NCBI GenBank assembly: GCA_964187785.1
Contig: OZ076409.1
Location: 21,888,001-21,952,000, forward strand
DNA: 64,000 nucleotides
Direction of reading: 5' to 3'
From: Amphiscolops sp. MND2022
Lineage: Eukaryota
Positions 1,102-51,856 of the stretch are shown in pieces (position 1 is the first letter of the stretch; each line of letters starts with the position of its first letter). The position numbers were made by a program, and so were the translations under genes. The notes beneath the pieces were generated by a model, which was not told the origin of the DNA, searched no databases, and saw only the letters and a list, made by a program, of their open reading frames with translations.

Positions 1102-1329
1102 CTGGTAAGTGTTGTATTACTTCAATGCCCATATCTTTCAGATGAGACTGATCGCCGATGCCTGACAGCATGAGTATTTGAGGAGATCCAATGGAGCCAG
1201 CACTCAAAATCACTTCCTTGTGTGCCCGGATTTTGATGGGCTCGGAACCAACCGGCTGCTCAACCATCAAGCCAACCGCTTTATCACCCTCAAAAATGAC
1301 TTTGTTCACAGCTACTTTAGTCAATGTAC
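1102..1329 (-). CDS. CHDH: Choline dehydrogenase, exon 11 (gene continues beyond the window start)
   Basis: KEVILSAGSIGSPQILMLSGIGD...HLPG GMC signature 2; TTTCAG acceptor, G|GTAAC donor. Confidence 0.92.
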
Positions 1330-2699
1330 CTGAAACCCAGCAAGATGGAAAAAGCTTGGAACAGTAATAGCAAGTAAATTAAAATTTAGGCGGCGAACGT
1401 TGGAAAAGGGCGGTAATGCTAGGCGAGAAAAAATTTAGAACTTGAAAATTGAAAAGTGCTGGTTGCCCTGGTGATGGCTATTGCGTTCGATCATTTCTGG
1501 TTCTCGATGGAGGGTCCGCTGACACGTGAATAAGTCCACAAACGGCTACTGAGGAAAAAATTTTTTCGACAGACTTTTCAAAACTGCGGTTTTACAGCAG
1601 TTTTTTCACTGCGGTTCTGTCCAAGTATGAATTGAACAAAAAAATAATAGGTCCACGACACTTGACTGATCTTTTTCACAGTTTATCATCTATATAGCAA
1701 CGTACATGTGGAATTTTCGAACGAATCAGGTCATTCGTAAGTAGGTAAATGTACGTAATGTTTTTATTGTTTTTTATCCGTTGGGTTTTGTAGTTTTCTG
1801 ATAAGGAAAACCATGTTCCGAGTCTAAAGGTTGACCTCTTTGGCTATGTTTTGGTCCTGTGGAACTGATGAGAGTTTTCTCAATACCTGTGGAAAAGACC
1901 AATGGTTTTCGACACTGCGACTTTTTTCCGGAAAAATATTCGGTCAAAGAAAACTCCCTCCACTTTTTACGAAGTTTTTGGCTGGGAAAAAGCGTTTTCC
2001 GAACTTGAACATTTTTCGACACTATGAGACCTTTTACGGAAAAAAATTTGCATTTTTTGATGCTTCGAGTATTTTTTGGCACTGTGTCCCTACGCATATT
2101 CTAAACACTTTGCTCTATTTTAAACCATGAGCGGGGCGTTCCCAGCTTATTCAATTTTATCACAGAAATGAAAAAATATCGCTACGGCTGCTCGATACGA
2201 GTTTAGGTTTTTGAAAATCGAGTTTTTAGGTATTCAAAAATAGCTTAAAAAGCTCCCAGAAAAGATTTGATTGCATATTATAATGCGTGAATCACATGAC
2301 GAAAAGGATCAAAATCGATTTTTTGCAGTAAGCTTGCTTTATGCCCCACACTATAATAGCGGGTATTGGGTAGTTCCTAGCGTCTCACGTGTGGAGTGCA
2401 TTATTGCAGGGCAGATCAACGGCTGTCTAAGGGTACTTTTCAGGTTAAATTCGCCTTGAACTAGACACATGAGTGGGTGTGCGTTCATTTCACCCCACTT
2501 TCATTTCACACCATATTGTAATTATACAAAAGCATCTCACCTTAATTAATTAATTTACCACTAAATTTAGATGCTACTGGTTTTGAGTCAGCTTTGATTT
2601 GATTGTCAGGTTCTGGCCATACGTGACTAAAAAAAGGAAAAGGAAATTTTTTGCATCAGTCATTTCACCCCTTCACAGGAGAAATGATTACTGTCTTTT

Positions 2700-3121
2700 T
2701 TAGTCGGCGCTTCATGAAGTGAAACGCGACTACACTAGTGGCTTTTTAAATCACGACGAACTGACCAAAATAGTTCTCAAAAATTCTACGGTACTTTAAG
2801 GTGTCAAATTGGACCATTTGGGCCAAGGAACTTAACCCGAAGGACCCACTTTCAATTCTTTCGGCATTGTGAGACTTTTTCGAAATTTTTTAAATGTCTT
2901 CAAAGGGTCCCCTTCAACTTTTTGCGAAAGGAATGTTGAATAATCCGAAAGGGTCCTACCTTTTAACGCGCCAGGGGCCCGCGGTATCGGGGCCCGGCGC
3001 GCCAATTCGGTCCAACTTTTGGGTTTTTCGGGAACTGTAAAAGAATATTTGACACTTTGAAGTCCTTTTGCTATTTTTGAGCCTTGGATATGGCGCCGAC
3101 TTAAGCCGTTCCCGGCTGGTT
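2700..3121 (+). mobile_element. DINE-1/HINE-like family A copy
   Basis: TTTTAGTCGGCGC start with partial IR; GCGCCGACTT plus short stem-loop at the end. Confidence 0.75.
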
Positions 3122-3306
3122 AAATTTTAAGAGAGTTTCTTTCAGTCAATTGTTCGTGATTTTTCTAAGATGATGCAAGAACGATAGGCCTCAATAGTTG
3201 TTTTACAACAAGGAGTCTTTTACTGCTTAATGCGAAGCTAGAGATCAGTTGGTTCGCTTCGACTCTATTATGTTTACAAACATTGTGATCTATTCAAAGC
3301 TGCAAT

Positions 3307-4207
3307 ATGGCTAAATCTACAGATGAAATATCTCTTATGCTGAAAGAATCAGCAATTGATGAATCGATAAAAAGCATTCTTATTCCCATTATTGAAAACC
3401 TCAAAGTTAAAGATGCGGAGATTATCGAACTTAAAAATGAAGTTACCTATCTCACCAAAAAAGTAAAAGAGATGGAGCAGTACTCGAGCAAGGATTGTAT
3501 TATCTTTCGAAACTTACCATTATTGTCTGGACGGTCAATTACGGAGGAAGTGGTTACATTTATCAACAAGCAACTTGGAGTTCAGATGGGACCTAAACCT
3601 GGTAGCATGCCATGCGCTCTCTCCTGTGAGGAACCCAGCACAGCCACCTGCAATAATGGCTAAGTTCATTTACTTTAGTTTGAAAGATCGTGTATGGGGA
3701 CGAAAATCGTCTTTGCGGTTTTTTAAAAATCCCTTGAACGGTTACGCTGTTTATTTAACTGAGCGACTAACAAAAAGAGATCAAGAACTTGGTAATGAGG
3801 CAAACAACATGGGTATACATGTAACAACAAATAATTGCAAGCCTCAAGTTTGGAAAGATTGTGGTGATGGACAATTCATGAAACATACACTTGTTGACAG
3901 GGACGATCTATTGAAACTGGCTAGAACCCAGAAGCTGCGAAATTTTCGACAAAAAACAGTTGATGAAATAACTCCGCCAACGGAATATCAAACCAGCCGA
4001 GAACGGCCAAATGTGACACCAGCTAACCAAAGTGGAAAGAGACCATTCCAAGAAGATTCTCCAGTCATTGACACGTCTCTCTATGATAAATTGAAAGCTG
4101 TGCGCGGAGACGAAGGACGAATACTCGACTTAGTGGAGTCTCTCTTCAATCAAGAAAAAGAAAAAAAAAGAATCATTTCAAACGGCAGTTTTGAACAAAC
4201 TGATTAA
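3307..4207 (+). pseudogene. LINE ORF1 (frameshifted)
   Basis: Two overlapping ORFs; coiled coil plus EQYSSKDCIIFRNLP and YLTERLT motifs. Confidence 0.8.
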
Positions 4208-4236
4208 ATTGTACCTAATTAGTTTTCACGATTTGA

Positions 4237-7200
4237 GTGGAGCGATCTGTTTCATCTACTTTCGGTTTCATGCATAAAAATACCAGCCGAATTGAAAGTC
4301 AGTGGAATGAGGTGAATGTACTAGGATTAAACATTAGATCTTTAGGATTCCATCATGACCAATTGAAAATACTTTTCGAAACGTTCGAACGTAAACCTGA
4401 AAAACTGATCATCACAGAAACTTGGTTAACTGAAAACGATCCTATTGATAGATTCGAATTGGATGATTACCAGCCAGTTGAATCGAAACCTCGAGAGTGC
4501 TTCAAGCGGAGATCTGGAGGTGTGGCTTTTTATGTGAAAGAAGGTATTAGGTACAGAAGTATTGAATTACAAACACGAATAGAATGTTCAATTGTTCAAG
4601 TAATTTTTTCTGATAGTGATGTGAAAAACTTTTGCGCAGTCTATAGACCTGAAACTTTCCGTTTATCAAAATTTTTTCCAGCATTTGAAGTACTATTGCA
4701 TTTTCTAAAGACTCTGAAAGGTGATAAAATAATTTTGAAGATTTCAATACTGACACACTGAATGAACACAAAGATAAAACAGATTACACGAACTTACTGG
4801 CGGCCTATTTTTTTCAAGTACAAAATTTTTTACCAACCAGAGTTACACCGACATCGAAAACATGTCTTGATCACAGAAAGAACGGTAAATACGGAGACGA
4901 TACAAACTACGATTAGTGACCACTTCACGGTCACTGCAAAAGTGCCGGCGATTTGGAAAGAAAGCAAGAGTAGAAATATTCCGCTTGCTCGCAATTTGAA
5001 CAGGCTAAAAGGAGAGAGTGCATTGAATTTCGTGTTCCTACTAGATCAAAAGCTTTAAAAAATTGAATGAAACTTCGGACGTAAATGCACATGTTGGCGC
5101 CAGAGATCGAGAAACTAACTTAGATAAATTAGATAGTTGAAATCTTGAGTTCCAAAACTTTCCAAAACACTCGAAACTCAAAACCATAATTCACTAACCT
5201 GTGCTGTTGTGAATATTTGAAGTCAAATGATTAATTTGGTAATGGCGCTTAATGTTTGTACCGAAGTTCATTGTACTTTGACTCTATTCGAACGAGAGCG
5301 GTGGCGTGATTTGAGTCAAATGTTATCTGTCCAACCTATCGGTCAAATTGCCGTTCATATTGCCGTTTCATTGATAGATTTACCTCTTTATGGAAAATTT
5401 TGGAAGGAATTGCCAAATTGGAGGTGTGAGAAATCCGAAAACGTGATGGAAAAAGTGATCTCATGTAACTTTGTTATTTGAATATCCTGTGACTTTACAG
5501 GTTATCAACTGTACATCCGCTGAGTAGAGTATAAATTTGACCAATTTTGATACCATATTCAGAACGCTAATAAAAATATTCTTGAAACTTAAATGTCTTT
5601 GACAGCTGTTGAGTAGCTACCCCGGTTCCGGTTTAGACAGGTTGTGACTGGGAGGGTAGCATTGCACTGCTCAACGATCGAAAAAATAAACTATCAGCTG
5701 TTTTAGGAGTCCTAATCAATCAGAAAAGTTCTCTTGAAATAGCATTATTAGGCGTAGTAGGTCTAAGAACTAGGAAAGCGTTCTATAATCGCTCATCGTA
5801 GTAGCGAGATCAAAAGCTCATCGTAAGAGCTATAGACGTGAAACGACAACCCTCTTCGCAAGCTTTGGTGGAAACACTTTGTTGAGGACGGTCAGTTGCA
5901 GTGTTTGGGCGTACAACCTCCGGACAACGAAGAGGCGAGGCAGATTTCCAGTCAAAAGAGGGATTGGGATCGAGGTATTGCTCAGCCCAAAGAGTCTGAA
6001 GTTGAGAAGCACGAAGCCGCTAGCAGCTGAGAACTCATTGAAATACAGTCCTTTTGAAAGTTTGTTCCTGCTTTTGGCCGAAGAAGCGGGAAGGATCAGG
6101 GACCGGCAGAAAGCTCAATTCCGCTGTAAGATTTGAGCGGCCGTTACAGCACAAATGAAAGAAATATCGGAATTTATCATGGCATGTGTAGATCAATTCG
6201 CACCAGAGAAGCCGCGGACAGGTCGAAATAAATCTGATGATTGGATTAGAAACAAAATCAAAAACGCCATTAGAAAACGTGATGATTTATTTCAGCTATG
6301 GATAAGAAACCCTACTGAGTTGAACTGTCAAACTTACAGAAAATGTCGTAATAAAGTCACGGAAATGATTCGATCAGAGAAGAAAAACACAAATTTCACA
6401 AAACCCGGAACAAATCCGACTGCTAAAACAATCTAGAAAACATTGAAATCAATAAAAAAGCAACAAGATGGTACGAATTTACCGGACTTGAATGTTTTAA
6501 ACAACCATTTCATTTCTATTGGACCGAAAATGTCATCCAAATTCACAGAAATAACAGGTGAATGTAATTCACCCGAATTTGAAAAAACAATGTTTGTGCA
6601 TCCTACCAACGAAAAAGAAATTTATGAGAAACTTCACGGCATGAAAAACAAAAAAAGCAGTGGTCATGATGGAATAAGTAATGAAATTTTAAAATGTTGT
6701 TCTCCTATACTGGATACCTTCCTAGTTAGAATTTTCAATCAATGTATTACTAATTGCATTTTTCCCGAATGCTTCAAAACAGCTAAAGTTATATCCCTGT
6801 ATAAGAAAGGAGACAAAACTGATCCCCATAACTACAGACCAATTAGCCTGTTGAGTTCATTGAGCAAAATTTTCGAAAAAATTCTTCATAAAAGAATGAT
6901 GAAATTCTGTCAAACTAACAAACTACTGAACCCAGTGCAATATGGCTTTAGAAAAAAAATGTCTTGCACTGATGCAATCGATGCCATAACGGACTACATC
7001 AGAGATGTGATTGATAGAAAATTGACTGGACAGGCCTGCTTCATTGATCTTTAGAAAGCTTTCGATACCATAGATCACAAAAAACTGTTGAGAAAAATGG
7101 AAAAACTTGGGCTGCGAGGGAATATCAACAATCTGATTGGCAATTATTTAACTGATAGGTGGCAATACGTTAGTACTAACAGGGAAAACACAATGAAACA

Positions 7201-8156
7201 AAAAAATTCCACTGGAGTTCCACAAGGATCGGTTCTAGGTCCTTTTTTGTTCCTGCTTTATATTAATGATCTTCCAAGTGTCTGCGAATCAAGTCAGATG
7301 ATGATCTTTGCCGATGATACAAGCATTATAAATGCTGGAAAACGTACTGGTGCTGCCATCAAAAATGACATAGTAACTGTATCCAAGTGATTCGAATCTA
7401 ACAAGTTGACTATCAATACTGATAAGTGCGAGGCAATGTTTTTTGGATGCGGCAAACCTAATAACTTGAGAGTCTTGTCGAAAGAGCTTGAGTACAAAAA
7501 TTCTTGTAAGTATTTAGGTGTCCACATAGATAAAAACCTGAGATTCAGAGAACACATTGATCATGTGGTTAAAAAACTGAACAAATTTTGTGGTTTGATA
7601 TATAGGGTAGGACACTTGTACCGGAGAAAATCTCTTCTAATGTTCTACAATTCAATTGCAAAATCAATCATTACTTATGGATTACTGTTATACGGTACCG
7701 CATATAAAACAAATATGACTAAAATAGAAGCTGTGCAAGGGCGAATCCTTCGGGCATTTTTTTCCAAGAAAAAATTCGATTCCTTGGAAAGTGTGTTTGC
7801 TGATAACAAAGTTTTGACTGTTTTTGAACTTTTCCAGGTAGAAATACTTAAAGAATTATTTCGTCAACTGAAATGTAAATCACCTCGTACTCTCTTGCAA
7901 CCTAATGAAAACTCTAATCCCAATTATCAAACAAGATTGCGTAAAAACATGTTTACCTGTATATAGTAGAACGGTTACTAATAAAAAGTCCTTGACCAAT
8001 TGTCTTGGAAAAGCATACAATTGGTTATTAAATCTAGATCTCGTTCCTTATTCACTATGGGAAATGTCTCCCCGACAAATAAAACAACTTATAACAAAAA
8101 TCACATCACTCTACATTATTGAGAACAAACAACTTTTAGAACTGTTCTACAACTGA
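4237..8156 (+). pseudogene. LINE ORF2 (APE-RT), fragmented and interrupted by a solo LTR
   Basis: Collinear APE and RT fragments; removing 5092-6153 restores DVNAQMKEISEF. Confidence 0.9.
5092..6148. mobile_element. Solo LTR (1,057 bp) inside LINE ORF2
   Basis: TG...CA termini (TGTTGGCGCC...GGCCGTTACA) and perfect 5-bp TSD GCACA (5087-5091 and 6149-6153); no coding capacity. Confidence 0.85.
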
Positions 8157-9620: not shown

Positions 9621-9771
9621 TGAGTTGGCTGCGCGACAACGCTGGTCTCAGATAGGCGTTGGCCGTGCTCCACCTAACTCCCTTCTTCACAGTCAGGTCC
9701 ATGTACCCCATACCTTCCTGCTGGAACCCATTTTGGTCATCAGTGAACGCGAATCCAGCTTCTTGACCGGC
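9621..9771 (-). CDS. CHDH: Choline dehydrogenase, exon 10 (absent from the ORF track)
   Basis: Translates [45 protein letters not shown]; donor A|GTTAGT. Confidence 0.92.
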
Positions 9772-10297
9772 CTTTGTCAATACATGTCCATCCGGTTAAT
9801 TTTAATCAATAATCTAAACTTGTAAGGATAGCATGCAAAAGGTAAATCATTTTCAAGCGCTGGTAAATTATATCAATTGCTAACTTAAATTCAAAAATGT
9901 GACATGACCAAAATTTTTTACTGCTATTTTGCGTTAATAATGTAATTGACTCCATCGTCAAAACTGAACAAAAAATTTAACTTCCAGAAACTTCCAATAT
10001 TGTTTCAAAACACACTTTGTTCGAAATTCTTTACCTTCTCGAATTGGTTATAATAAAAATTTGTTAAATCTTATTTAAATGGGAATCACTTCTTATTGGA
10101 CAATTCAGCATATCATTAGGAAAAGTTGAAAAAAAATGGAAGTGACATCCCCTCTTTTCATGAACGGCAAGTTTCGTTCACTCTTTTTATGCAAGAGTTG
10201 TATCGAATGAGTTCTTAAACTCCATTTTATTCTATCAAAACCATCTCTCATTGTCATTTGAGAGATGAATATTTAGAGGATGGATATGTATGAGTGC

Positions 10298-10536
10298 CTT
10301 TATCCACACGTCATGCAACTCGTTGCCCGAACTGCCCCTGGAAACAAAGAGGGGTCCATCTCCCCCTCTGTACTTGCTGGGTCCATGCTGGTGAGTCTGG
10401 GCGCGTTTGAAGTACGGCAGACAGTGGTGGTAGTCCCATTCGCTGCCTGCCCCCTCTGTATAAGCCCAGCGGTTGTAGTCTTCGGCGTGGCCCCGGACAT
10501 AAGCCATACCGTTTATAGAAGACGATCCACCCCATC
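10298..10536 (-). CDS. CHDH: Choline dehydrogenase, exon 9
   Basis: GWGGSSSINGMAYVRGHAEDYNRW...WDYHHCLPYFKRAQ GMC signature; 3' end needs a GC donor. Confidence 0.92.
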
Positions 10537-11323: not shown

Positions 11324-11476
11324 CTTTGCCACGGGGGCAGTATATCTTTCTGTTATTCATTTCCTTCTGTGGAACTGAGTAGTAATTCCAGTTGAACTTG
11401 GTCGTTTTACTGCCCAGATTGTACATCAACGCAACTGGCATGTGCACAGTCCAAGAGTAGTCTCGAGGTCCCGCTT
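11324..11476 (-). CDS. CHDH: Choline dehydrogenase, exon 8
   Basis: (E)AGPRDYSWTVHMPVALMYNL...NWNYYSVPQKEMNNRKIYCPRGK; canonical splice sites. Confidence 0.92.
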
Positions 11477-19382: not shown

Positions 19383-20161
19383 TACTGAAGTTTTTAAAGG
19401 AAGAACACCTTTCAACAAAAAATCCCGAAAACCCAAAATAGGGGCCCTTTTGTATTGTCTAGTGTCCTAAGTAGCTTGACATACTAATTTATTCAATAGG
19501 GAACCTTTGGATGTTTTGCAAATGTGTCATGAAAATATTATCCACCCCAAGAAAAAGACTTTAACCGGAAGCTTTCAGTTGACTAAAGGCGCCAACTAAA
19601 AAGTGTCAAAGTCACACAGGCGATGCAGCGATTTAAAAATTTCAGTTTTTCATTTTCGTTCCCATAGCTCTTGAGGCTATCAGGTTCAGTCTTCAAAGTT
19701 CACCAAAAGTTCTCGCAGAAAAAAGAAATTTACTCTAATTTTAATTATTTCATTTTGGACATATAACAGCGTATTTTATAAATAGCAACATTTTATTTTA
19801 ATTGCATAATGTATTCACTCATTTTATCTAAAAACTATGGATGCAAAAAGCAGATAGCGAAAATTGTGGCTATAACTAATCATTTTCTCATCAGCTGCTC
19901 AAAAAACGCGGCAGGTCTGATTTATAATGATGTCGAAAACTGCACAATTTGTTAGAACTTGGGACCGATAGTTGTGTGTGTATCGTGTTTATCATTGATG
20001 TAATTTATCACTACAAACAGTATTTAGGCTTTTTGCAACTCTATGAAGCCATTTTGTTGAAAAACAATGCAGGTTAGTTATGTGCTTGGTTTGGAGTATC
20101 CATTCATCATGTGATGGTTGCTTTGTTTCGAAAAGGAGTCCATGGTAGTAAATATATTAAC

Positions 20162-20385
20162 CGAGCAACAACACCGAAGGAGTGTATCCCGATTCGTTGT
20201 TCTCTTCCGTCAGCCGATTGGCCAATGTGCACCCAGCTGAGCCAGCACCTACAATGACGTAATCAGCCTCGTACTTCCAGGATGTGTCAAACAGAAACGG
20301 GTTGCTGTTGACATTGGGAGAAGCAGTCTCCGATTTGGCAGTAGCCGCAGCAGAGTCTTTGCTTCCAGCAGTTGTTGATAATTCT
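20162..20385 (-). CDS. CHDH: Choline dehydrogenase (GMC oxidoreductase) domain, exon 7 with FAD-binding motif
   Basis: DYVIVGAGSAGCTLANRLTE Rossmann motif; TTTAG acceptor at 20386 (alternative ATG at 20393); donor G|GTTAAT. Confidence 0.9.
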
Positions 20386-20597
20386 CTAAACATCGAAACT
20401 CACTTCATTTTAGAGTCGACATATCACTCCAGCACGAACAAAGATGAAGAAATTACAGCGAACCCTCGCACATTATTTTTTAGTTCTGAACTTTTATGCA
20501 AAAGATGCAATTTTGTGGTTCATGTCTGAACTCCGCAATTTCTCTAAAGAGTCCAATTTGGAGCCTACAAAATTTAGTTTTCCCATCATGAATAGAG

Positions 20598-21156
20598 AAC
20601 AAGCCGGGAACGGCATAAGTCGGCGCCATATCTAAGGCTCAAAAATAGCAAAAGGACATGAAAGTGTCGAAAAACTCAAAGTATCAAGCTCACAAAAAGA
20701 GTATCAAACTCACGAAAAACCCAAACGACGGAACCGGCGCACTAAAAGTGGAATCCTTTCGCATTTTTAACATCCATTGTTGCAAAACATCAAAAAATTG
20801 AAGGGTGAAAAAAATCGGTGAAAAAAAATTTTCCGAAAAGTCTCACAATGCCGGAAAAATTGAAAGGGGGACCCTTTGGGATTTTTCAACATCCATTCTG
20901 TCGCAAAACATGAAAAAATTGAGGGGGACCCTTTGGGGAAAATTTTTTTTTCGAAAAATTTCGAAACCGCTTCTTCCGGTATTGTATGTTACGTGGAAAA
21001 TGAGGAAAAATCTTTTTGCTTCAGTTCGCTAGGCCAAATGATTCAATTTGTGACCATAAAATTTTGTAGAACTTTTAAGAACTATTTTGGTCAGTTCGTG
21101 TGGATTGAAAAAAAGTCACTATAATAATCGCGTTTCACTTCATGAAGCGCCGACTA
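20598..21156 (-). mobile_element. DINE-1/HINE-like family A copy
   Basis: Both termini present. Confidence 0.8.
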
Positions 21157-21598: not shown

Positions 21599-21781
21599 CT
21601 TTTAGTGGAATTTGGAAGACAACTTTTTAATGGATACGACGAATGCTTCAAGGCTTGAGAGGTGGAAGTATGGTAGAAACGGGTATCAGTATTGGTAATT
21701 GATTTGCCCAGAATTTTTCCAGCTTGGAGGAGTTCCTCGCGCAATGCAGCAAGAGAGCTACCGTGCCTGACTGCAGTATTT
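21599..21781 (-). CDS. Linker exon 6 between the HAD and GMC domains
   Basis: Strong TTTTGTTTCAG acceptor, AG|GTTACT donor; 183-bp phase 2-2 open exon (R)NTAVRHGSSLAALREELL...RFYHTSTSQ...NSTK. Confidence 0.65.
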
Positions 21782-24994: not shown

Positions 24995-25118
24995 CGTGAC
25001 ATCTCGTCAGTGTGCAATCTGCCTGGGAGAACAACGTCCAAGATATCGTGAATGTCTTCAACTACGTAATCACTGTCTTTCAGCAGCGTTTCTCTGTCAC
25101 ACACTCCGCTTTCAACGC
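24995..25118 (-). CDS. HAD domain C-terminus, exon 5
   Basis: TTTGCAG acceptor gives GTVIG-VESGVCDRETLLKDSDYVVEDIHDILDVV, a typical HAD C-terminus; proposed donor CG|GTTTGT at 24994 (the ORF would otherwise run to a stop at 24910). Confidence 0.8.
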
Positions 25119-25626: not shown

Positions 25627-25670
25627 CGGCGCATACGTTATTCTTATATAACTACAACTAACATTGATTC

Positions 25671-32853: not shown

Positions 32854-32890
32854 TTATAATAAAAAAAATTATTGCGAAAGCTCCACGAAA

Positions 32891-33780
32891 CTACGTGGAA
32901 CACTGCTCAAATTTGTGGAAAATATTCATACTTTCTAACGTTTTGTTGTTAGAGTCAAAGTCGAATATGCTACTTAAAAGTTCTTGTTCATAGTATTTTC
33001 CTTGAATAATTCCTCCGTTTTCATCATTTAGAGTGTATGTTACTGGGTTTGTTTTGTTGATGTTGTGTATTTTAAAAAGTTCTCTATTCCAATTTGTTGT
33101 ATAACCTTTTGAATAAATGTTCCTTTTGTCAGGAACTCTTACAAAATCCCCCACTTGGAATTTGGCGAAGCGGCGCGGTTGTTTCGGTTTATTAACAAAG
33201 GTAGGTGGATCGATTGGTTTTTTATTCGCTTCAAAAGGTGTCATTTTTGTTGTGGTATGGACACGATTATTATACTTTTGTAAAGCAGCATCAAGGCGAT
33301 TCAACCAGCTACCTTTACCCTCAATATACATTGGTTCCTTAATTAAGTCCAGAAGTGTTCTATTGAAGCGTTCAACAGAAACAGCTTTCAAATCTGAATT
33401 AGTTGAATAAATTTGAATGTTTTGCTCTTTTAAATAGTGTAAAAATGTTGTGTTGTAAAACTTTTACCTCTATCACTCCAAATTTTGTGTGGTTTTCTCT
33501 TCTCTTTTTCAATGAGACCTTTTAATGCAGTAGTTGTACTTTTTCCTGATTTATCTTTGAGGGGAATCGCCCATGCATATTTAGTATGGTTGTCAATTAT
33601 TGTGAAAATAAACTTGTAGTTTTTGTTGTATTTGCTTAAGTTTGAGCGATCAATTAAATCGATACTCCAACATTCATCTTTATAGTGAGTTTGTATTTGA
33701 ATTCTTTGAAACTTCTTGATTACAGGAGAGAATATTTCTTTAACAATTTCTTTCTTGCGAAGCCCTGCATTTTGATTCAT
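32891..33780 (-). CDS. Retroviral-like (rve) integrase, 1-nt frameshift near 33462
   Basis: WSIDLID, TIIDNHTKYAW, WSDRGK(E)F, VERFNRTL DDE core; C-terminal FQVGDFVRV; no chromodomain visible. Confidence 0.93.
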
Positions 33781-33814
33781 TTATTATAGTTTTATAACAA
33801 TTTTTTATAAATAA

Positions 33815-35016
33815 ATGAATAATGATTATTGCTTGCAGAGCTATAGAAATAATTATCAAGGTGAAGGAGACGGCGCGAAAGCTGGCGCGGGAGCCGATGT
33901 GGCCAACAAACTGTATTGGTATCAGAAAACACAAATTTATAAAGTAATCACAAATCCTATGTTTTTTGTATGTTTAATTATATTTATAGGTATTATTGTT
34001 GTAATATATTGGAATTATATTCGCCCTAGACAGTTTAAAACAATTTATAAAAAACTACTACAATTTGCAGGGTTCAAATACTCTCATCTGACAAACCAGG
34101 AACGCGAAGCCCCCCAGGATACACGCGAAGCTACGCGTGAAGCTGAAGTTCATGGCAATTCCCACTTCATAATTTATGGTAGTAGTGGCTCTGGGAAGAC
34201 AAGTTTTTTAAAGCATTATTTGGCACAAGTTGCAACACAACGCCAAAGAAATTACGTAGTTTTCGGGAGAGATGAACGTGAGTTTCCCACTCAAAATTTT
34301 GTACCACTACTGCAGTTGGAGAAAGTTAGTATTGAATCACTTACTAATAAAATTGTTGTACTGGATGATGCAGGTGCATACGAAAGTCTTAAAACAAAAG
34401 TAGAAGACTTATTTAGATACGGTAGACACATGAATATAGTAGTAATTTATCTCGCTCACTATGCAAAGGATGTTCTTCCAATCGTGAGGGAAAATTGCTT
34501 CAAAATATACTTAACAATTAATAACCCAGATAACTTCTTCGAGTCGATTGTACAAACTTATGCGTTAGCTTCCGCGATCAAAGACGGGTTTAATTGGAAA
34601 TACTACCGCGATCATTTGGAGTTTGGTATAATTGAATTTGACACAAGGAGTCAGAAATACAAGATTCTAAACGATAAATACAACTTAATTTATGATTCGA
34701 GCAAACGAAGTAAATGGGGCCCCCAGAACAACTTGTTGCTTATGAAAGTTACTTTTTCACTGGTGATGAATACAACAGACTCAAAATTTTCTTAGAGGAA
34801 ATGTCCGACCAGACAATCGAAATAACACCAATCAACATAGCTTATTATTATGTGTTTTATTGCAAACAAAATAATATTAAAGTAAATGAATCCAAAATAG
34901 ACAACTACGTTGAGCGTATGCAAAAACCACTAATTAGTGATTCAGTTAAAGAGGACTTTAAAAATTTAATTTATGATCAGGCAAAAAGTTTTACTAAAAA
35001 TAAACTGAGTAATTAA
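33815..35016 (+). CDS. A32/FtsK-like ATPase 1 with N-terminal transmembrane helix; frameshift near 34720
   Basis: TM segment MFFVCLIIFIGIIVVIYW; Walker A GSSGSGKT; Walker B VVLDD; RYGRH; VREN; ORF 34714-35016 continues it after a C-run. Confidence 0.85.
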
Positions 35017-35029
35017 CGAGAAATTAACA

Positions 35030-35300
35030 AAAAAATATAGTGATTCTTAGAGAAGTTTAGAGAAATTTAGTGATTCTTAGAGGCATTTAGTGATCTCTAA
35101 GAATCTCTAAATTTCTCACTAAATCACTAAGGTTTCACTAAGAGCATTTATTTTCACTAAATTTCACTATAATCTCTAATCTTAGAGAAATGAATACTCT
35201 TAGAGGAATTTAGTGAAACCTTAGAGGGATTTAGTGATTTTGCTTAGTGATTACATAGTGATTACATAATGATTATTAGAGGAATTTAGTGATTTTTTAC
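35030..35300. repeat. Intergenic array of TTAGTGA/TTAGAG motifs in both orientations
   Basis: Many TTAGTGA, TCACTAA, TTAGAG and CTCTAA copies in about 270 bp. Confidence 0.85.
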
Positions 35301-35307
35301 TAAATAA

Positions 35308-36378
35308 ATGAATTGCTTAATTTGTAATAAAAGTAGTGAAAAAAGTTTGTGTGATGATTGTAGTAATAAAAAAAGATGTAAAGATTGTAATACATCAAAA
35401 TCCAATACAAATTTCTACATCTACAAAAATGGTAAAATGTATAGTACATGCATTCAATGTTTTAATAAAAAAGTGAGGTGTGAATTTTGTAATAAGGAAA
35501 TAAATAAGAGTTATTTAAGGTCACACGTCAAGAAGCAACACTATAATCAACACTATAATTATAATCAGCACTATAATCAGCATACTGGGGGTGATTTGCT
35601 TCCACGACAGCTATCGCGACAGCTATCACGAGAGCTACAGCGAGAGTTGCCACGAGGCGTGTCTTCACACAATAAAAATAATAATAACGCGGAAGCTAAC
35701 GCGAAAGCTATCGCGAAAGCTATCGCTAATGATGATAATGCGGGAGCTAACGCGGGAGCTAATGCTAATAGTGGTGTGAACGAAACTAATAGAACATTAA
35801 TAGTTGGGCCATCATTTTGTGGTAAGACTCATTTGTTGTTGAATAAATTACGATTGATTCGTTTGGAAGATCCAGAGAAACAAATTCGTATCATTACAAG
35901 GAGTCCGGAACAATATGAGGATGTGGAGCTTTATATTCAAGGAATAGAAGTGGAAGAAAATGTGGGGGATTTGGAAGAGTATAGGGGGTGTTGTGTAGTA
36001 TTTGATGATATGTTAGACTCCAACCAGAAATTGATTGATCCATTTTTTACTAGGGGAAGACACAAATCTTGTGATGTTTATTATTTATGTCAGAGTTATT
36101 TTGATGCACCAAAAAAGACAGTTAGAAACAATTCGAATATAATAATTTTATTTCAACAAACACTGAAAGATGTAGAACATATTCATAGGGACATATCAGG
36201 TTTTGATATGTCTTATGAGGAATTCAAAAGTTTGTGCAGAGAAGCATGGAACGAAAAATTCAACTACCTTTTAATAAACAGATTGGAAGATAAAAATGGG
36301 AGTAGGTACAGGATTTGTAATGAATCTAATCCAAATTACAAGATCTTTAATCCACAAACTGATCCTTTAAGTAATTAG
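35308..36378 (+). CDS. A32/FtsK-like ATPase 2 with N-terminal Cys-rich/C2H2 Zn-finger region, 356 aa
   Basis: Several CxxC pairs and CEFC...HVKKQH; Walker A GPSFCGKT; Walker B VVFDD; TRGRH; QSYF; VRNN. Confidence 0.9.
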   Translation: MNCLICNKSSEKSLCDDCSNKKRCKDCNTSKSNTNFYIYKNGKMYSTCIQCFNKKVRCEFCNKEINKSYLRSHVKKQHYNQHYNYNQHYNQHTGGDLLPRQLSRQLSRELQRELPRGVSSHNKNNNNAEANAKAIAKAIANDDNAGANAGANANSGVNETNRTLIVGPSFCGKTHLLLNKLRLIRLEDPEKQIRIITRSPEQYEDVELYIQGIEVEENVGDLEEYRGCCVVFDDMLDSNQKLIDPFFTRGRHKSCDVYYLCQSYFDAPKKTVRNNSNIIILFQQTLKDVEHIHRDISGFDMSYEEFKSLCREAWNEKFNYLLINRLEDKNGSRYRICNESNPNYKIFNPQTDPLSN

Positions 36379-36394
36379 GGACTTCGTGAGGAGA

Positions 36395-37477
36395 TTAGGA
36401 GATCAAGTTGCTTCGTGCGTAGCTCTGCATATTTTGGTGTTGAGAAGGTGATATGCATTCATACTCCAATAACTTGTCTATAATTGCAATAATTTGTTCA
36501 TTAATCAGAAAACTATCATTTCCTCCAACTTTTTCAAAATAAAGTAGTTTCAATTGATCCACTAATTCGTCTGGGTCAGATGGGAGGAAAATGTACTGTT
36601 GTGTGGAGCTTCGTGTGGAACTTCGCGAAGTTTCGCCATTTGCGTAGCTTCGCAATCCACTTCCTGTGAAGCCCTGTGTATAGCTCTGTGATTGGCCTTG
36701 TGTGAAGCCTTGTAATTGATAGCGAGAGTATAATTCTTTAATAAATTGATATCTGATCGATTTTTTATCTCCATAATTTAGATCATATTTCATATCATTT
36801 AGGAAGTTATAAATTGGGCCCCAGTTATTTATTGGTTTGTCAAATTGTGTATTAGTTATAAAATATTGAAGATCTGGGTTACTAAGATCATATGAATTTC
36901 CATTCTCGAAAGTCATTGTTGAACCTTTAATTAGTACTTGTTGTGGGTTATGGGGATTAATTATGAATAAATTAGGATTGTCTTGTGCGAAGCTCTGCGT
37001 AATTGGTTCTAAACTAAATTGACTTTTGTTTTTCTCATTAGGTAAATTAGAAACTGTTTTTACAATATTAGAATCAACCTGGTTGGAAGTAACAAGACTC
37101 GTAAGAAGCTGATTATTACGATTCGTAATTTCATCATATTCTTGTATTCCTTCTTTAATTGATTTCTGTAAATTTTTATTCAAAGCGTTACTCGATTCTC
37201 GAATAGCCTGTGTTTGATTTTTTATTGCTTGTACTGTTGTTTGTGAAGCTGCGCGGGTAGAATCATGTAGTGCTTGTATTTGTTTTTCAGATAATTGTTT
37301 CTGGTTTTCAGTAGCTTCCACCTGCTTTGTAGTAACAGGTTCAAAAACTTCTTCAAGGTCATAATGAAAGTCTTGCTTCCCTAGTTTCTCTTTTAACCTT
37401 TCTTTGCGTACTGAAGATTTTGTTTCTTGTAATTTTTTCAATTTTTCCAAGTCATCTCGGGTGTGAATTGAATACAT
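36395..37477 (-). CDS. Conserved Polinton hypothetical protein (coiled coil; C-terminal DPDELVDQLKLL...GND motif), 360 aa
   Basis: Intact ORF; C-terminal motif resembles one recurring in animal Polintons; GSG putative protease site. Confidence 0.7.
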   Translation of the reverse strand: MYSIHTRDDLEKLKKLQETKSSVRKERLKEKLGKQDFHYDLEEVFEPVTTKQVEATENQKQLSEKQIQALHDSTRAASQTTVQAIKNQTQAIRESSNALNKNLQKSIKEGIQEYDEITNRNNQLLTSLVTSNQVDSNIVKTVSNLPNEKNKSQFSLEPITQSFAQDNPNLFIINPHNPQQVLIKGSTMTFENGNSYDLSNPDLQYFITNTQFDKPINNWGPIYNFLNDMKYDLNYGDKKSIRYQFIKELYSRYQLQGFTQGQSQSYTQGFTGSGLRSYANGETSRSSTRSSTQQYIFLPSDPDELVDQLKLLYFEKVGGNDSFLINEQIIAIIDKLLEYECISPSQHQNMQSYARSNLIS

Positions 37478-37490
37478 TTATTAAGTATAA

Positions 37491-37985
37491 TTAGTGGATT
37501 TTCCCCAGATACAGGCCTTTACCATTAGTTCTTGCTTTTCTGTTTGTGTTGCTTGTGTTAGCTGCTTTGCTGCCTTTACTCGACAATGCTTCAGCTTTGT
37601 ATAACCCCTTCCCTTGATGAACAAATTTAATAACGTCAGGGGCAGTTGCGGCAATTAATCGTGGATTTTTACTTGCTGCTGCAGTTCCAATATTTGCTGC
37701 TATTTCTAGTGCGCGGCCTGGATTATTGAGTATTTTCTTTCCAACATTTTTGGCTGCAGAACCTAAATGTTTGAAAAAGTCCCCCAATCCTTCCCCATCT
37801 ATTGTTCGTTCAGATACAATTAGACTCTTATTTCTGTTACATATCATGCAGTTGCCACGTAATGTGTGTACGGGCCTGCCCATCTGTATCCCAGTGTTTG
37901 TAATTTCTCCATGAATATTTGTGGTGGGAGAATAATGTTTTCCACCAACACAATATGAATTATTTATAAATTTATTATAACTCAT
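37491..37985 (-). CDS. Putative virion core/membrane-lytic protein, 164 aa
   Basis: N-terminal Cys motif, then GEG followed by amphipathic LGDFFKHLGSAAKNVGKKIL; GKGLY occurs twice. Confidence 0.65.
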   Translation of the reverse strand: MSYNKFINNSYCVGGKHYSPTTNIHGEITNTGIQMGRPVHTLRGNCMICNRNKSLIVSERTIDGEGLGDFFKHLGSAAKNVGKKILNNPGRALEIAANIGTAAASKNPRLIAATAPDVIKFVHQGKGLYKAEALSSKGSKAANTSNTNRKARTNGKGLYLGKIH

Positions 37986-38064
37986 TTATTAGAAAAAAAT
38001 TATCATTTTTGTGGAGCTTCGTGAAAGCTATCGCGAAAGCTATCGCGAACGCTATCGCCCAACA

Positions 38065-39125
38065 TCATATTTTAATAATTTGAATTGTGAAGGTGAGTGT
38101 CTCCCCGTTGAAATCAACTGAATCATGATTAGAGTCCTCAAGGAAAAATTGAATGGTGTCCAGTCGTGTTTTGTTAATTGATTTGTACAAAACAGTTGTG
38201 GGTTCTTTTATAAGTTTATATCCGGGAGGTGCGCTTAAATTGAAAGAAAATAAAATTTGTTCTCGTATACCATTAACAATTGAACCATCTACACAGTCGC
38301 ACTTCAGATGAACTTTATCGGTGGTTGTTATCATGACTGGTTTTTCTGAAGTGTGAGTTCCGGATGGGTAATCACGTTGTGTAAAACCCAGGACTTTGTT
38401 AAGTTTGGAGTTAAAATGAATAGGGTTTGAGGTTGTTAAAACTGATTTCATCGATATTGTGTCGGGTATTATGTTGAATTCAATACTAAAAACTGTAAGA
38501 TCTTTTTTGAATTTTGACTTATCATCTAATTCATAACCTGAATCAGTAATTATTTGTTTTATGGTATTATTTATTTCAATCAGTTCGTATACACCTGGAA
38601 CTAAATTTATATCAATAAACTCATTCTCAATTTCAAAGTTTGGAATAGTTATAGGAATGTTGCTCTTCATTTGCTTTAAATAGTCAAAATCTTTTTTCGG
38701 AAGTTTCTTCTTTTTTTATAACTAGTAAGAAAATATATATTAGCTTTTTCTATAAATTCATAGTAAAGTTTATTATTTTCTAAATCATAAGTTTCAAATA
38801 GTTTTTTTATATTTGGCACCACTCCTGTGTCAAACTCAAGTGCATCGAGTTGTCGATCATTTAGAATAATCTGTAGTTTGTTATTGCTGTTAGTGATATT
38901 ATAAACTGTATTGTACACTTCTAAACTTGTTACTCCCATCATCCATTTTTCATTTAAAATGAGAGGAACATCAAATGAGAAAGATTCTTTTTGTTTATTC
39001 ATTTTAAATTCTAGAGTTTCTTGTGGTTTAGAATGAGTATTTTCAACTATTTCTTGATTAGATTTTGCAATACTTAAAAGAAGAGATTCTTTTTTATCAT
39101 AAGTTATGAAGGTGGATAGATCCAT
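38065..39125 (-). CDS. Minor capsid (penton-like) protein, frameshift near 38700
   Basis: KWMMGVTSLEVYNTVYNITNSNNK, INLVPGVYEL, VHLKCDCVDGSIVNG, VDFNGETLTF; split over ORFs 38676-39125 and 38065-38670. Confidence 0.78.
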
Positions 39126-39128
39126 TTA

Positions 39129-39359
39129 TTATAGATTAAATTGTTTGAATCCACTAGCGGAAATGTTATTTATAAATTCTTGCCTATCTTTTGATAATGT
39201 TTTCTTATGCGATAGCTTCCGCAAATTTGTTGTATTTTTTCCATGATTTTGATTGTGAAGCTGTTCTGTGGAGCTGTGCGTGAAATTATGCGCGTTAGCT
39301 GTCGCGAAGCTGTGCGAGATAATTTTACATTGAGTTGAATAATTATTAATTTTCTTCAT
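39129..39359 (-). CDS. Small basic Polinton protein, 76 aa
   Basis: Starts in TAATAAATG; start overlaps the protease stop and stop abuts the penton start motif. Confidence 0.6.
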   Translation of the reverse strand: MKKINNYSTQCKIISHSFATANAHNFTHSSTEQLHNQNHGKNTTNLRKLSHKKTLSKDRQEFINNISASGFKQFNL

Positions 39360-39780
39360 TTATTAAGTTTGAAAGTTTGGTAGTATAAATTTAGTACTGC
39401 ATTTTTGAACCCAATTTTATTTGTGAGATACAGTGTGTATAAACAATACGCCGCGCAATAACTGTCGTTGGTCTGAATTTGATATTCTGAATAAATACCA
39501 TTTTTAATATGATTAAGTATATTAGTTGGGGGTGGGCATCCATATGAATCAAATAATTTTGATTTGTAAACATAACCCAATGTGTTCCCACTGAGGGATG
39601 TAAGTTAACTATACCACTGGTAGTGTTAAACTTATCATCTCTCATGTATATTCCACACACTGTATTTATTTCGCCGGAGGCACCAAGCCTATCAAGTATT
39701 TCTTTTATTTTTACATTGGAAGTTGCTTCGTTTTTTAGTCCGTATTTTTCAACAAATTCTTTGAATGATAAAGAGTTCAT
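39356..39780 (-). CDS. Adenain/Ulp1-like cysteine protease, 1-nt frameshift near 39552
   Basis: GTHWV (His), FDSYG (Asp), QIQ...YCAAYC (Gln/Cys) split over two overlapping frames. Confidence 0.9.
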
Positions 39781-39804
39781 TTATTAGTTATTTTTCATTG
39801 TTGC

Positions 39805-40018
39805 TGGTTGTACATTAACGCTGGCTGTACAGCAACGCTGGCTGTACAACAACGTGTTATTATTACACATTGCATCATAGAGGTTAGTGAATTTTTGCTT
39901 CATGATAAAAACACTATTTTTGATGATTTGTCTTCTAAAAAGTCCTCAAAATCAATGGTTTTGAGGACTTTTAATTTTTGGCGTTTTGTTGGCCAGTATC
40001 GGGATTTCCACTACTACT
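39805..40018 (-). repeat. Polinton right TIR (214 bp)
   Basis: Reverse complement of 25333-25546; no mismatch seen by eye. Confidence 0.95.
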
Positions 40019-40095
40019 TCCTCAGAGTAGAGCATCTACCATCAATCACAATTTTCTTGATAGATTTCGTGCATGACGTAACAAAATAAACTAAC

Positions 40096-40339
40096 CAATA
40101 ACAGTACCAAGTCCGGCCGATTTGCCCATACCCGTGTCTGAAGGAGTGTCCCCGACCACAGCCATCTTCTCAGGTGGACAGTTGAACAAGTTGGAAAGGT
40201 ACAGGGCATTATCAGGAGCGGGTTTGGCTTTTGAGAATGGGTCGTCACCACACACCAGAGCCTCGATGTCCGGCAAAAGACCCATGTCCTGAAGAGCTTG
40301 TGTGGAAGCCAGGCGGTTGTCGGATGTACATACAGCTAT
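40096..40339 (-). CDS. HAD domain, exon 4 (motifs II-IV)
   Basis: IAVCTSD (motif II), KAKPAP (motif III), VVGDTPSD (motif IV); canonical AG/GT sites. Confidence 0.9.
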
Positions 40340-41479: not shown

Positions 41480-42770
41480 CAGTGCTGTGATAAAAGAATG
41501 GAACCACTGTTTAGGAAAAAATATTGGAACGACAGATTTATTTCGAAATTAATAGTCAACAATCAACAAAAACCAAAACATATTATGAATATAACATCAA
41601 GAAGTCTTCAATATTTAGTGTTTTTACCATTTCTGCGTAATACTTCATTCAGTCTTCTGGGAATAGACTCATAAAGAGTTTCTATGAAATCTTGCGGAAT
41701 TTTTCGAAATTCTTCTTCGCAAGTGTGCCAAAGTTCGTCTACAGTTTTCGGGTTCATTTTGGAGACCTTTTTCTTCAGAAAACTCCATACATGCTCGATA
41801 ATATTGAGGTCTGGAGACTGAGCCGGCCAATTTTCAAGACTTTCTACAGCATTTTCCAACATCCAAGTTTTTGTTAAGGTAGCTGTATGAACCGGAGCAT
41901 TGTCTTGTTGAAAAATTTCGCCCAGGTACATGTTCGGAAGGAGATTTTCTTGCAAAATTTGGACGTAAGAGACGGCATTCATGTTTCCAGACACTTTTGC
42001 CAGTCCTTTTCTGCCATCCGATGAGATGAATCCCCATAACATCAGTTTTTTTCCACCGAATTTTTTTGTTTTGCAGAGATATTTTTCTTCTATGCCACTT
42101 TTGAGAGGTCGTCTGACTAGTATTCTGCGATTTGGCGACAGTTCGATTATTGTCTCATCGGAAAAAATAACGTTTTTCCAAAAAGTTGTCGTTTTCAGTA
42201 CGAATTCCGATGCGAACTTTTTTCGAAAATGTCTATGACTTTGGGTCAATAACGGTTTCCGAAAGGCTACTCTTGCATGAAGTCCATAATTGAGAAGTGT
42301 TTTTCGCACAAGACTAGTTGAACAAGTGTTTTCGGGCTTCAGATGTTGTAAAAGTTCCGTTGAAGACTTTTTTGGATGGTTAATGGACAAAGTAATAAGT
42401 TTTTTTTCTTCCTTTTCTGTCAATTTTCTTGGTCGGCCGGGGCTTTTTTCATTTGCAAGATGGCCTCTGGACTTGAAATTCTGAATGACATTGAAACAAG
42501 ATGTTTTCGGAATGTTTAAAGTAGCTGAAATTTCAAATAAACTTTTGTTTTCGTTGTGCAGACTAATAATTTGTTGTTTGACTTCTATGTCATATCGAGG
42601 CATCTTTCATCAATGATTGACAAACCTAAACTGGCGTAGATTCAGCCTTTGTTTACCTAGATGCAATTTTCTCAGACACCCAGGCGTTTTAATAGAAAAT
42701 TATTTGCTAATATTTCACTGTTCCAATATTTTGTAACAATCAGAGGTTCCATTCTTTTATCACAGCACTG
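41480..42770 (-). mobile_element. Intact Tc1-like DNA transposon (1,291 bp)
   Basis: TA TSDs; 26-bp perfect TIR CAGTGCTGTGATAAAAGAATGGAACC, imperfect to about 51 bp; intact transposase. Confidence 0.97.
41608..42603 (-). CDS. Tc1-family transposase, 331 aa, DD35E
   Basis: HTH with GRPRK; FSDET, QQDNAPVH, SPDLNIIE. Confidence 0.97.
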   Translation of the reverse strand: MPRYDIEVKQQIISLHNENKSLFEISATLNIPKTSCFNVIQNFKSRGHLANEKSPGRPRKLTEKEEKKLITLSINHPKKSSTELLQHLKPENTCSTSLVRKTLLNYGLHARVAFRKPLLTQSHRHFRKKFASEFVLKTTTFWKNVIFSDETIIELSPNRRILVRRPLKSGIEEKYLCKTKKFGGKKLMLWGFISSDGRKGLAKVSGNMNAVSYVQILQENLLPNMYLGEIFQQDNAPVHTATLTKTWMLENAVESLENWPAQSPDLNIIEHVWSFLKKKVSKMNPKTVDELWHTCEEEFRKIPQDFIETLYESIPRRLNEVLRRNGKNTKY

Positions 42771-43612: not shown

Positions 43613-43824
43613 CCTGATATTGAACTTCCTGAGCACCTTGAAAAGTAGTAGCACATCTCCGATGGGGAACACCTTCTCCGTCTTTTCGCTTCCCCCGCCT
43701 TTCACACTCATGCCTCCGATCCAGTTCTCCTGCACTGCCGCATGGGCATCGGCCTCGGTGTAGTCGAACTGCGTCACCAACATATTCTCCAGAGCCCTTT
43801 TGCACATCGTCATAGTGTCTTCAG
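43613..43824 (-). CDS. HAD domain, exon 3
   Basis: TTTGCAG acceptor; (A)EDTMTMCKRALE...PIGDVLLLFKVLRKFNIR; donor AGG|GTCAGT; frame consistent with both neighbours. Confidence 0.85.
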
Positions 43825-50204: not shown

Positions 50205-50984
50205 TCCTATAATATAAAGGGAAGGCGCCTAACGAAACTTCAAGGTAGAATGATAGAAGCAAATTTTGCATGTGCTGAATTATGTTGAAGGGCGCGTCAT
50301 TAAAGTTTCAGGTGTCAATACACTAAAAGCAGGCGGTTCGTTCTACATCCCCTTAAACAGAACGGTGCTACGAAGAAGAGGAAGGCTTGTATGGGTTCTC
50401 AAAAAGCTGATTGCATCGGAGTAACTTTCAAAAACTTTTTCACTGCTAAAAATCCTTTTCGGAGAGATCAGAGTCTGTGAAATTCATTAATGAGAACATC
50501 TAGAGAAACGCACGATAGGTGTGAACCAAAATAAGCGGACCAGCCAAAAAGCAATTTTCGTGTAATTTGGCAGGGACCGGATTTTAGGTGCTAATTAAGT
50601 GGGAAAATTTTTTAAAGTTGAATTCAATAAGTAGATTTTTAATTGGTTGACAGGTCGCCATATCAGTTGAGATTCCAATTGTGAACGGTTTGATGTCAAA
50701 ATTTTTTGGACAAAGTTGATGGCTGTGCGTGAACTCAGATGGCAAATCTAGCAGCCACCTCCATGTGCTGCATATAGTAACTTGCAACTAATTTAGAATA
50801 TTCAAGTTTAAAAAAAATATTAAGGTAATTTTCAAAATGGGCAAAAAACCAGAAGTGTTTTCACCATCTTTTGACAAAGATATCACGATGATACTTTGAG
50901 AGAACATTACATTAAGCGTGGAAGGTATGAAATTGAAAGTGTTGATAAAGAAAAGACGAGGGAAAAGGTCATTGGGAGCCCTAC

Positions 50985-51147
50985 CTAGCATAGACCCGGG
51001 GACAAACTGCTTCTTCTCTTGGTCGTACCCCATCAGATCGTGAATGGCATCTCCCAACACTTGTCTACCCGAAGATTTTTCGAAGTTTCTCACCAGTTGA
51101 AGGAGCCAAGGTGACCACATGGAATGGAAATCCACAAGTGTGCCATC
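50985..51147 (-). CDS. HAD domain, exon 2
   Basis: TTTGAAG acceptor; DGTLVDFHSMWSPW completes the HAD motif I DKDGT; donor CTAG|GTAG. Confidence 0.85.
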
Positions 51148-51658
51148 CTTCAAAAAAATCATCCATTGTTTATTTAGAGTGAGGCAATGCGAATAAACAA
51201 CGTGCACAATTAGGTTATGAAAAACCATAATTAGACATGACCAAAATCATTGCGCTATTAACAAGTATGTGTGATTATGCCTCCGATGACGGAAGATTTC
51301 ACACAATTAGTGTCAGGAAAAAAAACGAAAACTACTTTTTAATCACTTCGCGCGAAAATTGAAAAACTTTTGATTGATTCAACCCTTCTAAACTTTTCAG
51401 TTGGAAGTCATTGCAAGTCTGATAGCATTTCAAGTCTCACGGAATTTCATCAAAAAACTTTTGATCGACTGGCTTAAACGTTGTTGATCGATACTTCTTG
51501 AAATCAATTTGATGCGTCAAACTTTCTCTGATGTTTTTCGATACAGATTTCTGCAAACCCTCAGCTTTTGTGATGCTTCAATTTTGAAAATCAAAATTTT
51601 CGAAACCAACTTGCAATTTAAAATGTTCCAAGAATCTTGGACACGAACTCAAACTGAC

Positions 51659-51856
51659 CTTGTCAAAAACTACAAGCTCGGGAGGGTTATTCAATCTGTA
51701 AACATGTCGGTCAACTGTTAGAAGCTTCCCTGCCAACACTTTGTTCAGAGCCGCCGTGGTTCTGAAGTTGCGAAGTTGAAGCGACGAAGACAACGCTCCT
51801 GCTCGTCCAGCCAATCCAAAACAAGCCGAACGGCGACACACACTTCGGAGCAACAT
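51659..51856 (-). CDS. HAD phosphatase-choline dehydrogenase gene, exon 1 (mitochondrial-presequence-like N-terminus and start of HAD motif I)
   Basis: ATG at 51856; Arg/Ser/Leu-rich, acid-free MLLRSVCRRSACFGLAGRAGALSSSLQLRNFRTT; ends ELVVFDK at donor AAG|GTCAGT (phase 0). Confidence 0.85.

Follow-up and report, generated by a model that had tools for sequence, protein, structure and literature searches.

Can a HAD-type phosphatase and a choline dehydrogenase (CHDH) be encoded by one and the same animal gene, and if so, what would its two halves do together? The question is raised by a stretch of 64,000 nucleotides from the acoel Amphiscolops sp. MND2022 (contig OZ076409.1 of assembly GCA_964187785.1, positions 21,888,001 to 21,952,000 of the forward strand; the whole stretch is called the window here), for which a first-pass annotation had proposed a fused gene coding for a bifunctional mitochondrial enzyme that may convert phosphocholine to choline and further to betaine aldehyde. 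Judging from sequence comparison, it is almost certain that the HAD and CHDH parts are one gene. On the basis of motif conservation, gene neighbourhood and analogy with known proteins, we further propose that its product could be a mitochondrial tandem precursor, cut in two, whose HAD frees choline for CHDH, a reading which as a whole we hold tentatively, at a little short of an even chance.

The gene lies on the minus strand (51856..1102), and re-splicing of its 11 exons (Table 1) gives an open reading frame of 2119 nt, that is 706 codons with 0 stops. The exon lengths and compatible phases agree with those of the first-pass annotation, as do the details of the join between the two enzymes, namely a CG/GTTTGT donor, a 183-bp linker exon of phase 2-2 and a TTTAG acceptor. 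All acceptors are AG, ten donors are GT, and that of exon 9 is GC (a GC-AG intron; window 10297-10298). A Pfam scan covering 10 of the 11 exons placed PF00702 (HAD) in exon 4 (E 3.5e-11) and GMC_oxred_N in exons 9 and 11. The first 45 residues contain 8 R/K and 0 D/E, a composition that fits a presequence. The C-terminal ~290 residues of CHDH, its last third, fall below position 1, and the gene extends past the window.

Table 1. Exons of the HAD-CHDH gene, in gene order, with positions in the window
Exon	Position	Strand	Length (bp)	Content
1	51659..51856	-	198	Initiation codon ATG, N-terminus resembling a presequence, first part of HAD motif I (D65-K66)
2	50985..51147	-	163	Remainder of motif I (D67-G-T), first cap helix with conserved Trp; 78-80% identity to acoel orthologs
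3	43613..43824	-	212	Helical cap
4	40096..40339	-	244	HAD motifs II (T196), III (K230) and IV (D255, D259); PF00702, PF13419
5	24995..25118	-	124	HAD core end
6 (linker)	21599..21781	-	183	Helix shared by three acoels, followed by candidate cleavage site 1 (R348-F-Y-H-T)
7	20162..20385	-	224	Candidate site 2, R375-E-L-S-T, remainder of linker, FAD-binding GAGSAG (421-426)
8	11324..11476	-	153	CHDH; 76-84% identity to acoel orthologs
9	10298..10536	-	239	CHDH, GMC_oxred_N; GC donor
10	9621..9771	-	151	CHDH
11	1102..1329	-	228	CHDH, GMC_oxred_N; gene goes on beyond the window

When exon 4 was searched among longer proteins, seven matches were obtained, the top four being HAD-GMC RefSeq models of 1005-1124 aa from Symsagittifera roscoffensis and Convolutriloba macropyga. 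The models of both species match the window gene exon by exon, linker exon included, and with the S. roscoffensis protein as query tblastn recovered 11/11 window exons, in order, at 46-84% identity; together with the open reading frame this bears out the proposed order of putative presequence, HAD, linker and CHDH in one gene. The direct orthologs, XP_063724733.1 (S. roscoffensis) and XP_075262799.1 (C. macropyga), have the identical architecture, and both records are automatically named 'choline dehydrogenase, mitochondrial-like', the HAD being absent from the name. With its counterparts in the two acoels the linker exon shares 46% and 52% identity, and a helix is common to all three species. 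Amongst the matches listed, 8/8 RefSeq isoforms of the two species are fused and every one has the linker exon, and hence the idea that this exon is optional filler was rejected. Four isoforms of C. macropyga (P0004, P0012-P0014) are ~107 residues longer, and in P0004 two CHDH exons are duplicated in tandem, which may be an artefact of assembly or annotation.

The fusion is found well beyond acoels. With the HAD region as query, 20 proteins in the size range 552-1759 aa were matched, 19 of them with a GMC domain. Fusions of HAD and CHDH come from 15 named species (acoels, Owenia, two nemerteans, bivalves, gastropods, two copepods and Gordionus), which we take to represent six phyla. The suspicion of the first-pass annotation that similar fusions may already exist in invertebrate databases was therefore correct: these proteins sit in RefSeq and UniRef without remark on the HAD. 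A literature search, largely limited to openly accessible journals, found no description of a HAD-CHDH fusion. Three Logan contigs of 4682, 4619 and 2923 nt, which appear to be spliced transcripts, encode HAD-GMC proteins of 1202, 1181 and 812 aa, respectively. Further, HAD, linker and GMC start share one frame in 46 short fragments, which end 19-33 residues after the start of the FAD motif in 35/46 and exactly 58 residues after it in 10/46; we read these frames as genomic and ending at introns, so that no splice is needed across the HAD-GMC junction. The possibility that the fusion is an artefact of gene prediction was rejected on these intron-free fused frames on short contigs and because three acoels conserve both the linker exon and the residues at the junction. 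A search for RNA runs covering positions 20100-25250 listed none for this species, which speaks neither for nor against the fusion.

Acoels, copepods and Gordionus have one N-terminal HAD, and molluscs, Owenia and nemerteans have two. In the second HAD of molluscs DKD is replaced by DLH, DLN or DFH, and this copy is probably without catalytic activity; the altered copy of Owenia is the first (DKN), and nemerteans retain both. Stand-alone HAD orthologs are seen in nematodes, lampreys, tunicates, the hemichordate Saccoglossus, a copepod and the oomycete Phytophthora. In a HAD tree of 96 rows, made by a quick method only and with an unresolved backbone, the three acoel domains group at 100, and fused and stand-alone animal HADs interleave, which is compatible with one origin of the fusion or with several. 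Members of the same subfamily are elsewhere fused to an MFS transporter, SPX domains or RNase H (P0187, P0212, P0216, P0256, P0281), and the SPX fusions hint at phosphate-status control.

The region between the two domains suggests what may become of the fused product. Linkers from 68 fusions among 157 proteins, dereplicated to 37, are 38-119 residues long and unalignable between phyla. A relaxed pattern, R-x-[FYLM]-[SA]-[TS], occurs in 35/37 of them, with 1.25 expected from shuffles, and in 0/106 GMC windows. It had been framed after viewing the linkers and was for this reason retested on 41 dereplicated linkers, of which 28 have the strict form R-x-[FY]-S-T against 0.1 expected, 34 the published R-x-aromatic form against 9.0, and 2 a Lys control motif against 1.1. 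The motif was also found in 3/4 fusions added later, and in none of 13 HAD-HAD linkers, which are acidic. A conserved site with arginine at -2 and an aromatic residue is present at the domain junction, in the window as R348-F-Y; this first site aligns with RLFHT and RLMHT of the other two acoels. The second, in which the R375 codon straddles the exon 6/7 junction, aligns with RSLSS and RRYST. According to PMC8734313, the consensus of the mitochondrial processing peptidase (MPP) has R at -2 and an aromatic residue at +1, yeast Arg5,6 being cut at RSY, and PMC11342911 describes human ACAD10 as cut internally at MPP consensus sites. The linker motif resembles these sites and, given its conservation, we favour matrix cleavage of a precursor over a stable bifunctional enzyme. 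Cleavage of the tandem precursor in the linker by MPP thus seems probable to us, and the 'bifunctional enzyme' of the first-pass annotation is probably wrong for the mature form, which may consist of two proteins. An AlphaFold model of an ortholog lends this little support: its linker has pLDDT <50, but so does much of the GMC domain, owing to a shallow alignment.

Other readings of the gene and its product have to be weighed against a cleaved precursor. That HAD and CHDH are two neighbouring genes and their fusion an artefact, as might be thought from an exon 5 that can end at a stop codon, is extremely improbable in view of the linker exon and junction residues conserved in three acoels and the intron-free fused frames on short contigs. 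It is also quite improbable that an internal promoter yields an isoform with CHDH alone, for which the linker would mainly be the presequence, that polyadenylation in intron 5 yields one with the HAD alone, and that the fused mRNA is one of several products. Reading through the exon 5 donor does add 29 codons up to an in-frame stop at 24910, followed 45 nt on by AATAAA (24865), in-frame ATGs occur at 21822, 20393 and M312, and HAD-only copepod-like proteins carry the same C-terminal motif; however, AATAAA occurs about once per kb in this region, the acoel isoforms listed are all fused, and many linkers have no Met ahead of the motif. As a minor route, such isoforms are compatible with a cleaved precursor. 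A further alternative, which we regard as rather unlikely, is a stable uncleaved enzyme in which the tethered HAD hands choline over to CHDH, the motif being a relic or a phosphorylation site. Tethered HAD-dehydrogenases exist (MtlD), and a single open reading frame is found in six phyla. Several observations also count against cleavage: the motif was framed with the linkers in view, many linker rows are related copepod-like sequences, the window sites RFYHT and RELST miss the strict motif and are less canonical than those of other groups, and among the family's own N-terminal leaders only 8/94 have the relaxed motif, an unexpectedly low share for a generic MPP site. The motif could alternatively be read as an R-x-x-S/T kinase site. 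Against an uncleaved enzyme stand the survival of the motif in linkers that are otherwise unalignable, its absence from the 13 HAD-HAD linkers and its fit to the R-2/aromatic consensus (PMC8734313).

As to the C-terminal enzyme, the S. roscoffensis ortholog (P0001) scores above the NF002550 cut-off (745 vs 605), without reaching that of the bacterial equivalog TIGR01810 (661 vs 732), and window exons 8-11 are 79-84% identical to it. The same ortholog is 42% identical to a bacterial BetA. The FAD motif GxGxxG is present as GAGSAG (Table 1), and PF05199 (GMC_oxred_C) is found in both acoel orthologs, the corresponding part of this gene being outside the window. CHDH oxidises choline to betaine aldehyde, toward glycine betaine; vertebrate CHDH is not known to carry an N-terminal HAD.

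All four HAD motifs are intact in the window protein (D65-K66-D67, T196, K230 and D255/D259 in GDxxxD), and DKD is retained in 249/264 motif-I matches. In a model of the homolog P0192 (pLDDT 95.8) the core is Rossmannoid and motif I is followed by a helical cap, and the HAD domain in the acoel ortholog model has pLDDT ~90. The best PDB matches by sequence and fold search are distant C1 HADs of 15-27% identity that give no substrate clue, a search of the ESM Atlas returned generic HAD clusters, and none of the characterised HAD families scored above its own cut-off. Membership of PHOSPHO1/PECP1 was rejected, as 5/5 proteins scanned had no match at E<=0.001 to PF06888, presumably the family holding PHOSPHO1. 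The phosphonoacetaldehyde hydrolase PhnX, whose motif I is DxA, was rejected on the DxD motif here and a TIGR01422 score of 38 bits vs a cut-off of 220. Bacterial phosphoglycolate phosphatase was likewise rejected (NF009695, 52 vs 225 bits; TIGR01449, 32 vs 180 bits), and we consider the current label of the subfamily, 'phosphoglycolate phosphatase-like', a mislabel. Membership of Pseudomonas PchP was rejected on motif I, DKDGT here vs DMDNT (PMC3170909).

Because this HAD has no family assignment and only distant structural relatives, its substrate was approached through gene neighbourhood. A profile scan of genomes matched at least 601 stretches, of which 551 were confirmed and the best 80, mostly from Chloroflexota, kept as bacterial loci. 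A choline or betaine gene lies within 5 kb of the HAD in 35/80 loci, the OpuAC- and GcvT-type counts being without matched background. These neighbours include an OpuAC-type binding protein (11 loci), a dimethylglycine-dehydrogenase-like/GcvT gene (17), a corrinoid protein (7), MttB (4), methyl-tetrahydrofolate methyltransferase (3), a GbsB-type choline dehydrogenase (3) and betaine-homocysteine methyltransferase (2). A 2-aminoethylphosphonate-like (PhnS-like) ABC binding protein is present at 42/80 loci. GbsB, matched in 12/80 genomes, is ~11 kb or less from the HAD in 4, and in one (L060) it follows the HAD immediately on the same strand and scores above its own cut-off. Of 50 genomes, hand-chosen from the 80 mostly for long contigs, 28 have a BetA-type match; by coordinates, 4 of the matches lie 13-21 kb from the HAD. 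Two of these regions, on inspection, have betA, electron-transfer flavoprotein, a dimethylglycine-dehydrogenase-like gene and ChoXWV-type transporter genes upstream of the HAD, together with the PhnS-like system, and one also encodes an aldehyde dehydrogenase that is most similar to betaine-aldehyde dehydrogenase. A betA that had seemed to stand beside locus L005 was dropped, since it sits on a different contig (L083, 12,041 bp vs 32,601). A metallophosphoesterase (L047:625-1800), a possible upstream phosphodiesterase step, is beside the HAD in 6/80 loci and an unannotated 250-aa family (L065:4168-4917) in 9/80. Two non-homologous choline dehydrogenases, the GMC enzyme in animals and the Fe-ADH GbsB in Chloroflexota, are thus linked to this family, and these ties, along with those to betaine genes, offer independent support for a phosphocholine-type substrate. 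The phosphocholine guess of the first-pass annotation has thereby gained support from gene neighbourhood, and the HAD itself falls outside the known phosphocholine phosphatase families (PF06888, PchP). We lean slightly towards a phosphocholine-type substrate.

Other observations count against it. GbsB is on other contigs than the HAD in 8/12 genomes, 24/28 betA matches are not near it, 45/80 loci have no choline or betaine neighbour, about half of the 80 form one syntenic Chloroflexota group of close relatives, and GcvT-type and corrinoid genes are not betaine-specific; moreover, no characterised HAD family claims the domain, and phosphocholine would have to find a way into the matrix. The HAD of the tandem precursor might instead serve in metabolite repair, act on a phosphate of a sugar or of glycerol or on a compound derived from a phosphonate, or work as a regulatory sensor in the manner of the ACAD10 HAD. 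Such a role would suit a HAD outside all assigned families, with stand-alone orthologs in nematodes, lampreys, tunicates, a hemichordate and oomycetes, with a molluscan second copy that has lost the DxD acid, with unrelated neighbours at many bacterial loci and with an adjacent ABC system that is 2-aminoethylphosphonate-like. We nevertheless consider it unlikely, given the links of the family to GMC and GbsB choline dehydrogenases and to betaine demethylation genes, the DKD kept in nearly all motif-I matches and a phosphonatase score far below cut-off.

If the cleaved precursor acting on phosphocholine is taken as a working model, a nuclear gene would give one precursor consisting of a presequence, an Mg-dependent C1-cap HAD phosphatase, a basic Ser/Thr-rich linker and CHDH. 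It would be imported into mitochondria by the N-terminal presequence, and a second MPP cut at the R-x-aromatic site or sites of the linker, which probably derive from a former presequence of CHDH itself, would release a free HAD and a CHDH of normal size. The HAD would hydrolyse phosphocholine, or a close N-methylated phosphoethanolamine, to choline, which CHDH would, as known for its family, oxidise to betaine aldehyde en route to glycine betaine. Phosphoethanolamine methylation, as in plants and nematodes, is a possible upstream source of substrate. The benefit of the fusion would then lie in joint expression and import of two consecutive steps and not in a covalent link between the enzymes.

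Similar arrangements are on record. Yeast Arg5,6 and Atp25 and S. pombe Rsm22-Cox11 (PMC8734313) share with this protein a presequence, here a putative one, two enzymes, here probably of one pathway, and a conserved R-x-aromatic junction site, whereas the present case is animal, not fungal, has other enzymes, and its cleavage is suggested by motif conservation. Human ACAD10 (HAD-kinase-ACAD; PMC11342911) also begins with a HAD and ends in a flavin dehydrogenase; it is mitochondrial, as the acoel protein probably is, and is cut internally at MPP consensus sites. Its HAD, in contrast, is regulatory and has no second Asp, while the acoel protein has an intact DxD, a GMC dehydrogenase and no kinase domain. 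By likeness to Arg5,6 and ACAD10, the acoel protein is a candidate member of the MPP-split tandem precursors. PchP and PHOSPHO1/PECP1 are HAD-superfamily enzymes of the same reaction as proposed here; PchP is induced by choline and betaine (PMC3170909) and is periplasmic, unlike the acoel protein with its putative presequence.

Several introns harbour mobile elements. Intron 4 holds a low-GC Polinton/adintovirus-like element of 14.7 kb (25332-40019) with perfect terminal inverted repeats of 215 nt, ending ~210 bp from exon 5. It encodes a double-jelly-roll capsid (31609-32853), an rve integrase piece (33433-33780) and an A32-like ATPase (33815-34792), besides a long frame broken by a stop near 29713, which we presume to be polymerase-like and in which Pfam gives an endonuclease VII domain only. 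Intron 3 contains an open Tc1/mariner transposase frame of 332 codons (41611-42606, minus strand), and intron 10 a LINE-type element (3289-7963, plus strand) with reverse-transcriptase pieces broken by stops. Pieces of another gene, with a repetitive Pro/Gln/Tyr-rich exon and no Pfam match, lie upstream at 57873-60329 (minus strand).

Betaine is a main osmolyte of marine invertebrates, and the accessible part of PMC11849188 treats oyster CDH as a key betaine enzyme, with no mention there of a HAD domain. Pho-independent bacterial use of intact phosphocholine is called unresolved in PMC10132767. Against this background it is conceivable, though doubtful, that the fusion is an ancient animal polyprotein, perhaps dating back to the bilaterian ancestor, with a later split in nematodes and in deuterostomes; that it represents a new family of mitochondrial phosphocholine phosphatase made with CHDH and cut by MPP, acting as committed entry from phosphocholine to betaine in marine invertebrates; and that its bacterial counterpart works on phosphocholine imported through a PhnS-like ABC transporter. 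If the working model holds, a widespread uncharacterised HAD subfamily would gain a substrate and the phosphocholine-to-choline step would be located inside mitochondria. The short list of MPP-split tandem precursors would be joined by an animal case spanning several phyla, and a candidate for Pho-independent bacterial phosphocholine use would be at hand.

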